Program-made: the position numbers and the translations under genes | The notes under the pieces: model-generated | What the model was told of the DNA's origin: nothing | What the model saw: the letters and a program-made list of their open reading frames with translations, nothing else | Database searches by the model: none | Shown: in pieces, positions 13,041-63,605 of the stretch | Layout: every line of letters begins with the position of its first letter | Position numbering within the stretch: position 1 is the first letter of the stretch | DNA from: Thermodesulfobacteriota bacterium | GTDB lineage: Bacteria; Desulfobacterota_D; UBA1144; Nemesobacterales; Nemesobacteraceae | Direction of reading: 5' to 3' | DNA: 64,000 nucleotides | Assembly (NCBI GenBank): GCA_965116725.1 | Contig: OZ220700.1 | Span: forward strand, 564,923-628,922

Positions 13041-13988
13041 CTATTGTCTCTCGGGCCGCTGCCTCCAGCCGCGCTTCGCAAGGACCTCGGCAAACTCTTT
13101 GATTTCCCCTGCGCGCTGTGGATCAATTCGTTCAACTTTCCCTTCGTGTTCAATAAAGAAGTAAAGCTCTGAGAAAATACAGCCGGAAGGACAATCACCC
13201 CATGCCCTGCGAAACACCGCGTACCATTTCCCCTCTGACCACAGCACTTCAATATCGGAACCATCCCCCAATATGGAATTGGGCCTGGCGTAAATGACTC
13301 CTTCTATTTTCTCATATGATGCGCCCGCGGAGTAGACGTGCTCGCGCGGGTCAAACCTGATCACGATGACTTGCGTATATTCAAAAGGAAGAATTTCCAC
13401 GCCTCGCAGGCCAACCGACGCATTAAGAGCGTCAAACTCCGGGCGCCCTGTACAAAAAGGAGCGGAAACACCCTCTTCGGGCAGACTGACGGACACGGCT
13501 TCAAACAAAGACGGTTCCAAACTCAAAATCAGCGTCCCGGGTTCCCATCTTGGGCGCGCATTCACCTCGGCCATCTCCGGCCATGTGGAACGTATTATCC
13601 CCAAAACCCGCGCTATATCATCGATAAGACTGCGCCCGGAAAGATCCGGGATTTCTAAGACGCGACGGGCTAGAATCGCGGAATCAGTCTCGCTAGTCTG
13701 TTCAAGAGCTCCGCGAGTGACAACCGGTGCCTTGTCGCCGCACGCATCAGACAGAATAACAGCAGATGGGGATACCGGAGAATCCGCAAAGCATGCCGTC
13801 ACCATCATACACAAAACGGCAACAATTGAGATCTTGACTATGGACATCCGGAACCTCTGAACAGATACAGAGTGTATATTTTTCGGGAACAGCATCTTTA
13901 ATTCCATGAACTCCATATATTTTTCATTATATGTCATCATAAAAACAGGGGCTCCCGACCTTCTATCAGAATGTGTATCCTCACACAC
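13041..13988 (-). CDS. Hypothetical lipoprotein
   Basis: Likely true start at the internal Met near 13847 (MSIVKISIVAVLCMMVTAC...), which gives a signal peptide and a VTAC lipobox. The rest has no recognisable motif. Confidence 0.5.
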   Translation of the reverse strand: MCEDTHSDRRSGAPVFMMTYNEKYMEFMELKMLFPKNIHSVSVQRFRMSIVKISIVAVLCMMVTACFADSPVSPSAVILSDACGDKAPVVTRGALEQTSETDSAILARRVLEIPDLSGRSLIDDIARVLGIIRSTWPEMAEVNARPRWEPGTLILSLEPSLFEAVSVSLPEEGVSAPFCTGRPEFDALNASVGLRGVEILPFEYTQVIVIRFDPREHVYSAGASYEKIEGVIYARPNSILGDGSDIEVLWSEGKWYAVFRRAWGDCPSGCIFSELYFFIEHEGKVERIDPQRAGEIKEFAEVLAKRGWRQRPERQ

Positions 13989-14136
13989 CAGTTTCTTAAA
14001 TGTAATATAAATACTGTAACTCCCTACAATTTATAAAGTCTTCTCACAAAGAAAATCAGGGAATAATCACACATTTCTTTTCTAAATGTAAAAACACCTA
14101 CAAGTAATGGACAGTATGTAGTGCTTGAATGGTGGG

Positions 14137-14165
14137 TTGACATTATTTCTGTTTTCTGGTATTAG
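14137..14165 (+). promoter_or_regulatory. Candidate sigma70-type promoter (TTGACA, 17-nt spacer, TGgTATTAG extended -10)
   Basis: TTGACA at 14137-14142. 17 nt spacer. TG at 14157-58 followed by TATTAG at 14160-65. No annotated plus-strand gene follows before the terminator at 14252-14292. Confidence 0.3.
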
Positions 14166-14171
14166 TACTAA

Positions 14172-14292
14172 CTGTTCGGTAACATAGGTTCATATCTCTG
14201 TTGCCTCCTTTAAGGAGTTAGGTCTCTTTATAGATTCGTGTGTTTTGAATGGGAAGACTAGGTCGCTACCACAGCTTAGTCTTCCTTTTTTT
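14172..14292 (+). ncRNA. Candidate small RNA (~120 nt) bounded by a predicted promoter and a strong intrinsic terminator
   Basis: Promoter-like element upstream. Internal perfect hairpin CTCCTT-t-AAGGAG. Terminates in a 9-10 bp GC-containing stem (ggaagacta...tagtcttcc) plus a 7-T run. No ORF of more than 21 codons in the interval. Confidence 0.3.
14252..14292 (+). terminator. Rho-independent terminator (plus strand)
   Basis: Stem ggaagactag / ctagtcttcc with one bulge and a ~14-nt loop, followed by ttttttt (14286-14292). The orientation only works on the plus strand. Confidence 0.6.
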
Positions 14293-14486
14293 ATTCAAAT
14301 GAAGTAGCTGAGTGGTAAATACGGAGTGGCGGCGGTCGGAGTTCTGGATAAAACCGTAAAATCACACGCAAATAGGCTTTTAAACTTTTATCACATCGCC
14401 AACCCGCATGTGCTGGACACTACGCCTCTAAACTATACGCTTTTCCCCAACTGCAGGGAAACTTTCCGTTCGCACCAGTTTCGAAG

Positions 14487-15632
14487 TTGGCTTCAGGAGC
14501 ACTGCTTGCGGAATTGACTTTGCCTCCGCTATTAGCTTTATTAATTTTCTCTATGAGTTCGCTCGAAAATATCTACGGGAAGGTTTTTGAAGGTAAGCGG
14601 ATATCGACCGACGAAGCCGCCCAGCTTCTCGCAAAGGCCGACCTGCTCCAGTTGGGTTCCTTGGCCGATATAGTAAGGAAAAGGTTTAATCCGGAAAACA
14701 TAGTGACCTTCGTCGCGGACACAAACCCCAACTATACGAACGTCTGCGACACGGAGTGCCTTTTCTGCGCTTTCTGGAGACCGCCGGGCGCCTACGACGC
14801 CTACACCATGAGCGTCGACAAAGTAATCGAAATAATGCGCACCTCCTACCACAACGGCGCCACTACCGTCCTTCTGCAGGGCGGCCATAACCCGGAACTT
14901 AAGCTTGACTACTACATCGAAATCGTAGAAAGGACCACGAGGGAGATACCGGATCTTCATCTCCACGCATTCTCCGCCCCGGAGATAGCCGCCATTGCCA
15001 AGTACGAAAACCTCGACACGAGATACGTGCTGCAAACCCTCTGGGACGCGGGGCTGAGAACAATACCGGGAGGGGGAGCAGAGGTGCTGTCCAACAGGGC
15101 GAGAAGGGCGATAAGCCCTCTCAAGATAGATGCTGACACCTGGATGAGAATCACCAGGGAAGCTCACCTTGTGGGCTTTAAGACAACCGCAACCATGATG
15201 TTCGGTCACCTTGAGGAAGACGAGGACATAATCGAGCACCTCTTCAGGATAAGAGAGCTTCAGGATGAAACGGGGAATTTCCTGGCGTTTATCCCCTGGA
15301 CATTCAAGCCTAAAAACACCTTGCTTGAAAAAAGAATAAAGGACGAGGTCGGCGGGGAAAGATACCTTAGGGTTCTTTCGGTGTGCAGGATATTCCTTGA
15401 TAACTTCAAGCATGTACAGGGCTCTTGGTTTACCCAAGGAAAGAAAATGGGTTCAATGTCCCTGCACTACGGCGCGAGCGACCTCGGCGGGACTCTTTAC
15501 GACGAAAATGTCCTGGGGTGCGCTGAGAACAAGATCCGCTCGACTGTGGACGAGCTTGTTCACATGATAAAAAGCGCCGGGTTTAACCCCGCGCAGAGAA
15601 ATACCTATTACGAAATTCTGGAACGGTTCTAG
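14487..15632 (+). CDS. Radical SAM enzyme of the MqnE/MqnC family (menaquinone biosynthesis via futalosine)
   Basis: CDTECLFCAF radical-SAM cysteine triad in the NYTNVC...C.FCAF context typical of MqnE/MqnC/CofH-type enzymes. C-terminal HYGASDLGGTLYDENV. The likely true start is the internal Met near 14553 (MSSLENIYGK). Confidence 0.65.
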   Translation: MASGALLAELTLPPLLALLIFSMSSLENIYGKVFEGKRISTDEAAQLLAKADLLQLGSLADIVRKRFNPENIVTFVADTNPNYTNVCDTECLFCAFWRPPGAYDAYTMSVDKVIEIMRTSYHNGATTVLLQGGHNPELKLDYYIEIVERTTREIPDLHLHAFSAPEIAAIAKYENLDTRYVLQTLWDAGLRTIPGGGAEVLSNRARRAISPLKIDADTWMRITREAHLVGFKTTATMMFGHLEEDEDIIEHLFRIRELQDETGNFLAFIPWTFKPKNTLLEKRIKDEVGGERYLRVLSVCRIFLDNFKHVQGSWFTQGKKMGSMSLHYGASDLGGTLYDENVLGCAENKIRSTVDELVHMIKSAGFNPAQRNTYYEILERF

Positions 15633-61946: not shown

Positions 61947-62022
61947 TGGTGGAGCCGACGGGAGTCGAACCCGCGACCTCATGAATGCCATTCATGCGCT
62001 CTCCCAACTGAGCTACGGCCCC
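61947..62022 (-). tRNA. tRNA-Ala (anticodon GGC)
   Basis: Reverse complement folds as a cloverleaf. Acceptor GGGGCCG/CGGCTCC with the G3:U70 alanine identity pair. Anticodon loop ATGGCAT. T-loop TTCGACT. Encoded CCA. Confidence 0.85.
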
Positions 62023-62089
62023 GCATAAAACAGAATTATAAATCTAGTTTCAAGGCGAGCGCATGTCAAACCCGAAGAAAGTTGAGGGA

Positions 62090-62166
62090 TGGTGGAGCCG
62101 ACGGGATTTGAACCCGCGACCTCATGAGTGCGATTCATGCGCTCTCCCGGACTGAGCTACGGCCCC
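62090..62166 (-). tRNA. tRNA-Ala (anticodon CGC)
   Basis: Near-identical paralogue of the upstream tRNA-Ala. G3:U70 retained. Anticodon loop ATCGCAC. D-loop one nt longer. T-loop TTCAAAT. Encoded CCA. Confidence 0.85.
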
Positions 62167-62303
62167 ACGAAAAACAGGAATAATTAGTCTATTTCAGGAA
62201 ACATGGCTGTCAAACCTCCGCTCCAAGACAGCGGCCCCTCTGTATTGTAAAGCGGATTATGTATAATTTTCTTTTTGTGCGTTAAGAAAAAGGAGATTGT
62301 CGG

Positions 62304-63605
62304 ATGAATTCCGTAGATATAGGTCTTATAGGCGCCGGAACCATAGGTTGCGGAGTTTATAAAACAATAAGCGAAAACAAGGACATAATAGAAAAAAGGA
62401 CCGGGATAAGGCTCAGAATCAAGAAAATAGCCGATATCGACATAAAGAGAAAACGCCCGGTAAAAATCCCTAGGAAGCTTTTTACCACCGATGCGCGCGA
62501 ACTCATAGACGACGAGAGCATCTCGATAATAATCGAACTTATAGGCGGAACGACGGCAGCGCGTGAACTGGTCTTGGCCGCGATACGAAACGGAAAAAAC
62601 GTCGTAACTGCAAACAAGGCCCTTCTGGCCCACCACGGGGGTGAAATATTCAGGGAAGCGGCCGCAAACGGGGTTCACGTGGCGTTTGAAGCAAGCGTCG
62701 GAGGAGGAATACCCATAATCAAGGCGGCACATGAGAGCTATGTGGCAAACAACATTCTCTCCATACACGGAATAATGAACGGGACGTGCAACTACATACT
62801 CCACAACATGTCGGAGCAGAAAAAAGGGTTTGACGAAATGCTGCAGCGCGCCCAGAAAGAGGGATACGCAGAAGCGGACCCCTCGTTTGACATAGACGGC
62901 ATTGATGCCGCGCACAAGCTGTCGATTCTGATAATGCTTGCCTACGGATTCTTTCCGAAATTCGAGAACATATACGTCGAGGGAATAAGAAACATCTCTT
63001 CAATCGATATAACCTTCGCCGAGCAACTCGGCTACAAGATCAAACTACTTGCTATAGCCAAGTTAACCGACTCGGGCATACAGGCTGGAGTTTATCCGGC
63101 CCTTATAAGAAAAAACACTCAGCTGGCCGATGTAAAAGACGCGTTTAACGCAATCCATATCGTGGGAGACAAGGTAGGTCCGACAATGCTATATGGAATG
63201 GGAGCCGGAATGCTCCCGACAGCAAGCGCCGTTGTGGGCGATCTGGTTTCAATTGCAAAAACCGCCCAAAACGGTTCGCAGCCTGCCCCTCCCATGCTTT
63301 ACGCGGAAGACGCCGGACGCAGGTCTCTTGTCAGCACCGACGGTCTTACGGGCCGCTACTATCTTAGATTCCAGGTCGAGGACAAGCCTGGCACACTCGG
63401 GAAAATAACCACGATTCTCGGGAAGTGCGGAATAAGCATAGAGTCCATAATTCAGCAGACAAGGGAAACAAACGGCGGGGAGGTTCCTATCATAATAATG
63501 ACCCACGAGTCAGGGGAGAAAAGTCTCAGGAAAGCCCTTGATAGGATAAGGAAATCCATGACATCCGTAGCCGACGCGATTTTCATAAGGATTGAAGAAA
63601 TATGA
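62304..63605 (+). CDS. hom: Homoserine dehydrogenase with C-terminal ACT domain
   Basis: NAD-binding GLIGAGTIG. Catalytic domain (NKALLA, HGIMNGTCNYIL). C-terminal ACT. 433 aa. Confidence 0.9.
   Translation: MNSVDIGLIGAGTIGCGVYKTISENKDIIEKRTGIRLRIKKIADIDIKRKRPVKIPRKLFTTDARELIDDESISIIIELIGGTTAARELVLAAIRNGKNVVTANKALLAHHGGEIFREAAANGVHVAFEASVGGGIPIIKAAHESYVANNILSIHGIMNGTCNYILHNMSEQKKGFDEMLQRAQKEGYAEADPSFDIDGIDAAHKLSILIMLAYGFFPKFENIYVEGIRNISSIDITFAEQLGYKIKLLAIAKLTDSGIQAGVYPALIRKNTQLADVKDAFNAIHIVGDKVGPTMLYGMGAGMLPTASAVVGDLVSIAKTAQNGSQPAPPMLYAEDAGRRSLVSTDGLTGRYYLRFQVEDKPGTLGKITTILGKCGISIESIIQQTRETNGGEVPIIIMTHESGEKSLRKALDRIRKSMTSVADAIFIRIEEI

Follow-up and report, generated by a model that had tools for sequence, protein, structure and literature searches.

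A candidate lineage-restricted small RNA gene on a recent insertion between a lipoprotein gene and mqnC in sponge-associated Candidatus Dadabacteria

We analysed a 64 kb stretch of DNA (64,000 nt; hereafter, the window) from Candidatus Dadabacteria, a phylum that NCBI files under Thermodesulfobacteriota, and identified upstream of mqnC a compact, non-coding unit on the plus strand. The evidence supports a unit that consists of a promoter-like site and a strand-specific terminator and is separate from mqnC. We tentatively read it as an independently transcribed small RNA gene that is restricted to its lineage, a reading to which we assign slightly less than an even chance. In its favour are a rare promoter motif and a top-ranked terminator set at the spacing of a small RNA gene, and a core that was spared while the neighbouring DNA eroded. 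Against it are the restriction to one small clade with close relatives that do not carry the unit, evolution at the rate of silent sites, a defective ‒10 box and a location in an insertion hot spot. Given the young insertion and the silent-site rate of evolution, the unit remains an ordinary small RNA candidate.

The unit lies between two divergent genes, and no plus-strand gene was found upstream of it for more than 3.7 kb. The downstream gene encodes an MqnC/CofH-type radical-SAM enzyme, and its ATG is located at 14553, not 14487. The upstream gene, on the minus strand (13041–13847), encodes a fast-evolving putative lipoprotein, with 64–88% identity among homologues where MqnC shows 93–98%; no Pfam family was detected for this ORF. 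The preliminary description had extended the ORF to 13988, which is too far: within the long ORF, the lipoprotein-type signal peptide MSIVKISIVAVLCMMVTAC begins only at codon 35, and a length of 266–267 aa prevails among the homologues; the start was therefore placed at 13847. With the corrected starts at 13847 and 14553, the gap between the two genes is approximately 700 bp. The long gap reported earlier is thus real, although its size had been given as only about 500 bp, and it is AT-richer as had been described, with a GC content of 0.31–0.41 versus 0.5–0.57 in the flanking genes.

The long intergenic region is a lineage-specific, AT-rich insertion of approximately 460 nt (13878–14340; GC 0.31–0.41) that carries the candidate unit and whose left half is eroding by large deletions. 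Relatives with an empty site have instead about 20 nt (TCACCAAGAGTTATTTCAAG) at this position, and in them only about 270 nt separate the lipoprotein gene from mqnC. When 80 mqnC-anchored genome loci were screened by blastn and nhmmer, the unit was found only in L001 and L003. Contigs encoding lipoprotein homologues added L081 and L082, while L111–L117, L085 and L083 were empty or different at this position. No more than four distinct sequences were found to carry the insertion, all at the same locus: those of the window, L081, L001 and L003 (L082 being the same as L003). The closest copies of the unit are derived from metagenome-assembled genomes, that of L081 from a sponge metagenome, and the clade that carries the unit is one small clade of sponge-associated Dadabacteria. 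Empty sites were aligned from L008, L018, L009, L002, L010, L111, L112–L117 and L085, and they occur in relatives equally close to the window. Since no further lipoprotein homologue in the protein collection has the N-terminal ORF extension created by the insertion, public data are unlikely to contain further copies.

The locus is a variable insertion hot spot. At the same position, L007 carries an IS-like gene, and L006 and L083 carry genes for large surface proteins, namely, a 795-aa Calx-beta protein and a He_PIG protein, respectively; in L006 and L007, the conserved block lies on one side of the insert and the mqnC promoter on the other. Comparison of the four variants revealed, in the left half of the insertion, three large indels, which we judged to be independent. 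One of them is a palindromic segment of about 120 nt found only in L081 and L001, which is single-copy and has no terminal repeats. In contrast, the right half (14103–14342), which includes the unit, is intact save for an 18-nt and a 3-nt indel.

The unit ends in an intrinsic terminator on the plus strand (14251–14292), in which a 13-bp stem is followed by U7. The core of the stem is formed by pairing of GGAAGACTA (14252–14260) with TAGTCTTCC (14277–14285), and RNAfold lengthened it to 13 bp (14251–14286; ΔG ‒17.9), its last pair involving the initial T of the T7 run at 14286–14292. In a custom scan for hairpins followed by T-runs on both strands of the 64 kb, this terminator ranked 4th among 42 sites by strength; the sole reason why a generic scan passed over it is a loop of more than 8 nt. 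Past the hairpin, the minus strand reads CAUUCAAAAC and offers no U-tract, indicating that the terminator is one-directional and operates on the plus strand. A stable, G+C-containing hairpin with an adjoining U-tract on the transcribed strand is therefore present, in agreement with the earlier claim of a strong plus-strand terminator without a plus-strand gene upstream. The stem is kept in all four variants, with one pair appearing as A–U, G–U or G–C, and an invariant run of 23 nt extends from the 3′ arm through the T-run to 11 nt beyond it. Past the terminator, the right flank of the insertion (14293–14342) is invariant in 34 of the 42 columns over 14301–14342.

Next to the terminator, the second signal of the unit is a promoter-like site; the TTGACA and TATTAG hexamers and the terminator stem were all present where the preliminary description had placed them. 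The ‒35 hexamer TTGACA (14137–14142, plus strand) is invariant in all four variants and is the same as the ‒35 of three tRNA promoters of the window. After a 17-nt spacer follows the ‒10 candidate TATTAG (14160–14165), with a TG at 14157–14158. The final position of sigma-70 ‒10 boxes is almost always T, and TATTAG carries a G in place of this ‒7 T. The window and L003 share the ‒10 sequence TATTAG, L001 has TATTGG and L081 has TATCAG, so that the final T is absent from all four; the TG of the extended ‒10 is out of register or missing in L001 and L081 (L081 has no TG). A generic promoter scan rejected the site because its ‒10 does not have the obligatory final T. Hence, the promoter proposed earlier stands as regards its perfect, invariant TTGACA and its 17-nt spacer, but its ‒10 is defective in every variant.

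The three tRNA promoters of the window have the form TTGACA-N16/17-TAnnnT (TATGTT, TAGACT and TAGATT), with the ‒7 T in all three, indicating that the organism uses classical sigma-70 promoters. The pattern TTGACA-N16–18-TA occurred at 6 sites in the 64 kb, compared with 3.4 expected from shuffles; among the five sites other than that of the unit, three are the tRNA promoters and one (42244) lies just 5′ of a ribosome-binding-site-like sequence. By our own estimate, a given terminator would have such a motif 80–150 nt 5′ of it on its own strand in about 0.2% of cases by chance. An alternative extended ‒10, TGaCATTAT (14138–14146, plus strand), has the A at position 2 and the T at position 6 and is kept in all variants (as CATCAT in L001); no ‒35 accompanies it in the window sequence. 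In L003 and L001, the 18-nt insert (GGTTGACGTCAACCTCCT) supplies a TTGACG ‒35 at 16 nt from this alternative ‒10, and the scan reported the site in L003. The alternative promoter would place the transcription start near 14153, and the predicted RNA would then be approximately 140 nt. Directly 5′ of the ‒35 is a conserved block (14103–14136, plus strand) with 28 of 34 columns invariant, at the 3′ edge of which the 18-nt insert of L003 and L001 is located.

The predicted non-coding RNA of about 122 nt (14171–14292, plus strand) folds stably. Its folding energy on the plus strand was ‒39.4 kcal/mol (z ‒4.6), and none of 200 shuffles was as stable, versus a z of ‒1.6 for the minus strand. After correction for GC content, the folding energy of this 122-nt stretch was among the best 4 of 5112 windows covering both strands (top 0.1%), on the plus strand only. 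Across the four variants, z ranged from ‒4.3 to ‒6.4 on the plus strand versus ‒0.6 to ‒2.7 on the minus strand. RNAalifold recovered two hairpins, H1 (10 bp) and H2 (5–7 bp), and the terminator. H1 (14178–14205) has 10 bp in the consensus, and its stem is kept in all variants through one-sided, G–U-compatible changes, with one pair broken in the window. H2 (14211–14230; UAAGGAG/CUCUUUA in the window) is the most variable part of the RNA, with 5 consensus pairs and one A–U to G–C double change. A U-rich stretch, UGUUUUGAAU, precedes the terminator hairpin and U7. The 'perfect hairpin' CTCCTT-t-AAGGAG (14205–14217) of the preliminary description was discarded as a conserved element: its 1-nt spacer allows at most 4 bp, and it is not conserved in L003 or L001. 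The longest plus-strand ORF in the unit has 20 codons, and no conserved ORF was found in the unit, the plus-strand ORFs losing their start or gaining stops in the orthologues (L001, L003 and L081). The unit is thus non-coding, as had been supposed.

The conservation of the unit was then compared with that of silent sites. Across the four lineages, 107 of 151 4-fold degenerate mqnC sites were invariant (0.71), as were 83 of 123 columns of the candidate RNA (0.67), so that the RNA, taken as a whole, is not conserved beyond silent sites; the invariant fraction was 0.74 for the core (14103–14342) and 0.70 for the left part of the insertion. Conservation within the RNA is highest in the first 14 nt, of which 12 are invariant, in the pre-terminator UUUGAA-GGGAAG and in the invariant 23-nt run. 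By our count, approximately 10 substitution events keep plus-strand pairing versus approximately 3 that give C–A mismatches, and 2 double changes were present. The covariation score (0.194) was matched by 108 of 500 shuffles and is not significant, the four distinct, close sequences giving low power. The structure is therefore retained and strand-biased, while four close sequences do not demonstrate selection on it. The check for compensatory stem changes suggested in the preliminary description thus yielded no support, with no conservation beyond that of silent sites and covariation within the range of shuffles; neither of these marks of a functional structured RNA was found, at the low power of four distinct sequences.

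Database searches did not assign the unit to a known family. Rfam 15 at gathering thresholds detected only 3 tRNAs in the whole window, and even at E≤10 no match was obtained over 13950–14560, so that the covariance-model search recommended earlier left the unit without a family. A covariance model of our own (R1), built from 5 copies of the unit, detected neither paralogues nor remote homologues when run against the window and 92 related loci, and a 16-bit match in L048 was dismissed as hairpin-only noise. Of two pattern scans of JGI metagenomes, one had no match and the other had 25, all pattern-only and attributable to chance. Two viral pattern scans gave 2 matches (unaligned and taken as chance) and none, respectively. 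One of the viral matches is on the same contig as one of the metagenome chance matches. The complements of two conserved unpaired segments of the RNA occurred in the 64 kb at counts equal to chance. A tblastn search for hfq that covered the 64 kb and the fetched loci had no match in these regions. In a full-text search of the literature, no paper on small RNAs in Dadabacteria was found.

The claim of an independent non-coding unit is accordingly upheld by its signals, its fold and its separation from mqnC, but receives no support from Rfam, from excess conservation or from covariation. Alternatively, the insertion may be the decaying relic of a past event that brought in, for instance, a mobile element or of a lost gene, the terminator being a leftover and the promoter motif fortuitous or likewise a leftover, with nothing functional made from it. 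The lineage-specific and eroding nature of the insertion makes this a serious rival, and we consider it quite possible, although not probable. The whole insertion, including the candidate RNA, evolves at the rate of silent sites; three independent large indels have struck its left half among only four lineages; the site is a hot spot, with the IS-like gene of L007 and the large surface-protein genes of L006 and L083; the insertion is confined to one small clade, with empty sites in equally close relatives; and the ‒10 box is defective. However, chance is unlikely to have set a perfect ‒35 at small-RNA distance from a top-ranked terminator, the core escaped the deletions that struck the neighbouring DNA, and the stems pair in all variants with a bias to the plus strand. 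Moreover, the insertion showed no similarity to phage and plasmid collections (blastn), to IS elements, to protein-coding remnants or to the L007 element, and the window and 117 loci contained no second copy of it. Neither terminal inverted repeats nor a clean target-site duplication was present at its junctions. The repeats, copies and duplication expected of a MITE or IS remnant were thus not found in the window and these loci.

A different type of explanation is suggested by the lipoprotein gene. In the empty-site relative L008, the approximately 20 nt replaced by the insertion, together with the adjoining TATATTTTTC, form a promoter-like site for this gene (TTGAAA-N17-AAAAAT). The window keeps the ancestral ‒10 at 13878–13883, and the ‒35 has been replaced by the insertion. 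These observations indicate that the insertion separates the ‒35 of the lipoprotein promoter-like site from its ‒10. The insertion might thus act in cis by having rewired lipoprotein expression, in which case the unit would oppose a long lipoprotein 5′ UTR, as an antisense transcript or by transcriptional collision, or would be an insulator that keeps plus-strand transcription out of mqnC. In line with this, the L008 site lies exactly at the insertion point, the insertion contains a minus-strand promoter-like site, TTTACA-N18-GATTAT with a TG (14092–14063), back-to-back with the plus-strand site, and the hairpin is no terminator on the minus strand, so that minus-strand transcripts coming from the right would cross the unit. 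However, the minus-strand site at 14092–14063 is deleted in L001 and L081, no canonical minus-strand promoter was found to the right of the unit, and the argument consists of motif matches. We regard this cis role as unlikely. A related reading, in which the insertion split the lipoprotein promoter and at the same time delivered or created a newborn regulatory RNA that controls the lipoprotein gene in cis, through antisense action or transcriptional interference on an elongated 5′ UTR, or other targets in trans, appears to us equally improbable.

The location upstream of mqnC, on the same strand, of a structured RNA ending in a terminator could also point to a cis-regulatory mqnC leader, in which transcription would start near 14171 and the hairpin with U7 would be a conditional terminator of an attenuator or a riboswitch. 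We consider this very unlikely. A distance of 260 nt separates the terminator from the mqnC ATG, and about 220 nt past the terminator lies a promoter-like block of mqnC itself, TTGACT-N17-TTTATT with the ATG at 14553 (14514–14555, plus strand), which is kept with or without the insertion. In this block, 40 of 44 columns are identical across 16 relatives, both insertion-bearing and empty-site. The 40 nt directly 5′ of the ATG read GAATTGACTTTGCC.C.GCTATTAGCTTTATTA.TTTTC.CTATG and are shared even by L083, whose upstream DNA is unrelated. Since mqnC has its own invariant promoter past the terminator, the unit is not an mqnC leader. In addition, the unit is absent from most of the relatives that keep mqnC, some of them with a 98% identical MqnC, and neither a conserved anti-terminator pairing nor an Rfam riboswitch match was found.

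A small-protein gene or a type I toxin–antitoxin pair is scarcely credible, for although the 39-codon minus-strand ORF (14143–14024), which begins within the ‒35 box, has its first 14 or so residues similar in three variants and an 18-nt indel that stays in frame, its C-terminal two thirds are wholly different or deleted in L001 and L081, the 17–20-codon plus-strand ORFs are broken across orthologues, and no ribosome-binding site was found.

Returning to the small RNA gene, we propose the following course of events. The insertion of approximately 460 nt landed between the divergent lipoprotein and mqnC genes, and would carry a self-contained plus-strand transcription unit. RNA polymerase would start at about 14171 from TTGACA-N17-TATTAG, or at about 14153 from TGaCATTAT, and would stop at the hairpin and U7 (14251–14292). 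The transcript would be a non-coding RNA of approximately 120–140 nt with three hairpins, namely, H1, H2 and the terminator, and would be made on its own, mqnC starting from its own promoter 220 nt further on. We infer that the promoter fires and that the RNA accumulates, as well as any target or chaperone that it may have. The product would most likely be a base-pairing small RNA, and pairing might take place at its 5′ end, which is unpaired and invariant (ACUAAC..UUCGG), or at the linker CCUCCUU that follows H1. At its other end, the combination of U-rich stretch, terminator hairpin and U7 tail is similar to the 3′ module to which RNA chaperones bind.

Small RNA genes that consist of an orphan promoter and a Rho-independent terminator are the type predicted by sRNAPredict and SIPHT, and are exemplified by the Hfq-dependent small RNAs of enterobacteria. 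The candidate resembles these orphan intergenic small RNAs in its length of about 120 nt, its non-coding nature, its own sigma-70-type promoter-like site, its 2–3 hairpins and unpaired 5′ end, and its ending in a U-rich stretch, a terminator hairpin and a U7 tail. It differs from them in that it matches no curated family, has a defective ‒10, and is kept in only four near-identical lineages at a level not above that of silent sites. Its membership of this familiar class is thus suggested by these features but unproven. Young small RNAs restricted to a lineage, born on insertions or from degraded mobile or foreign DNA, are a general concept of comparative studies of enterobacteria. As in those cases, the candidate is located on a recent, AT-rich insertion in a hot spot, its presence varies among close relatives, and it evolves fast outside the terminator; unlike them, its inserted DNA resembled none of the phages, plasmids, IS elements or other loci compared.

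Two further types of element share some properties with the unit. Like attenuators and riboswitch platforms, it is structured, ends in a terminator and lies 5′ of a cofactor-biosynthesis gene, mqnC, on the same strand, but it is separated from this gene by 260 nt and an invariant promoter, is absent from most relatives and matches no aptamer. Like MITEs, REP-like elements and IS remnants, the insertion is short, AT-rich and structured, and lies at a hot spot that holds the IS-like gene in L007, but it is single-copy, has no terminal inverted repeats and no clear duplication, and is dissimilar to the L007 element.

We know of no small RNA previously described in Candidatus Dadabacteria, an uncultivated phylum. 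If expressed, the candidate would be, to our knowledge, the first, and would provide a dated example of a regulatory RNA that arrived on a recent insertion which rewired the promoter of a surface lipoprotein. Should the newborn-RNA reading be true, it would illustrate the birth of a small RNA by insertion in an uncultivated phylum. If the unit is not expressed, it would caution that neutrally decaying DNA can harbour textbook promoter and terminator signals together with a strong fold.

In any of these cases, the unit has no bearing on the regulation of menaquinone (mqn) genes, because mqnC has its own invariant promoter. No Shine–Dalgarno sequence was found before the mqnC ATG and the predicted transcription start lies a few nucleotides before this ATG, suggesting that the mqnC transcript is probably leaderless.

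Immediately upstream of mqnC, a block of approximately 40 nt 5′ of the ATG at 14553 (window 14511–14555) was almost unchanged across 16 relatives, including those carrying unrelated DNA further upstream. The layout of this block is TTGACT-N17-TTTATT, followed after 10 nt by the ATG, and no Shine–Dalgarno sequence was found in the approximately 40 nt ahead of this start codon. The presence of a promoter-like motif 10 nt from the ATG, together with the lack of a Shine–Dalgarno sequence, suggests that the mqnC mRNA is leaderless or near-leaderless. The sequence GCTATTAGC within the same block is possibly a regulator site.

The gap between the lipoprotein gene and mqnC is an insertion hot spot, with a different gene in each of three related loci: an IS-like HTH protein of 397 aa (L007 1647–2840), a Calx-beta/SWM-repeat protein of 795 aa (L006 469–2856) and a He_PIG protein of 615 aa (L083 380–2227). 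In L006 and L007, the insert is flanked by a conserved intergenic block on one side and the mqnC promoter on the other.

The minus-strand ORF at 13041–13988, which encodes the putative lipoprotein, is probably too long at its start: a lipoprotein-type signal peptide (MSIVKISIVAVLCMMVTAC) starts at 13847, inside the ORF, and the homologues are mostly 266–267 aa. No Pfam family was detected for this protein; some homologues gave a weak Fervidolysin-prodomain-like match. Compared with its neighbours, the protein is evolving far more rapidly, and many relatives lack it. Ahead of this gene, the empty-site relatives carry a promoter-like TTGAAA-N17-AAAAAT (L008 2772–2800), of which the window retains the −10 (within 13875–13884) and has lost the −35, the insertion coming between the two. 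The 10-mer TATATTTTTC of this region occurs again 41 nt on (13916–13925).

Within the insertion, L081 (2353–2472) and L001 (about 2357–2474) carry an extra segment of approximately 120 nt that is missing from the window and L003. This segment contains the long imperfect palindromes CCGACCG...CGGTCGG and AAGTTTCC-A-GGAAACTT, is bordered by CCCGACC repeats, and had no further copy among the window and the relatives' loci examined. An 18-nt indel, GGTTGACGTCAACCTCCT (L003 2571–2588; aligned site in L001, about 2576–2593), would fall just before window position 14135. It introduces a second TTGAC motif and contains, immediately 5′ of the −35, a perfect 14-bp palindrome (GGTTGAC/GTCAACC), a possible protein-binding site. 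A direct repeat, TCACACA...TTTCT.AAATGTAA, occurs at 13981–14005 and 14067–14091, with a spacing of 86 nt; the DNA between the two copies is deleted in L001. A promoter-like site on the minus strand, TTTACA-N18-GATTAT with TG (14092 to 14063), overlaps the right-hand copy.

Elsewhere in the window, at 62262–62307 on the plus strand, a long hairpin (UUUUCUUUUU/AAGAAAAAGG) lies downstream of a TATAAT box; its fold has z −4.95 and ranks second in the GC-corrected scan of folding energies. An ORF begins at 62305, and its ribosome-binding site, AAGGAG, is predicted to be sequestered by this hairpin, which may act in translational control. On the minus strand, two tandem tRNA-Ala genes with anticodons CGC and GGC (61947–62213) each have a separate promoter, TTGACA-N16/17-TAGAYT.
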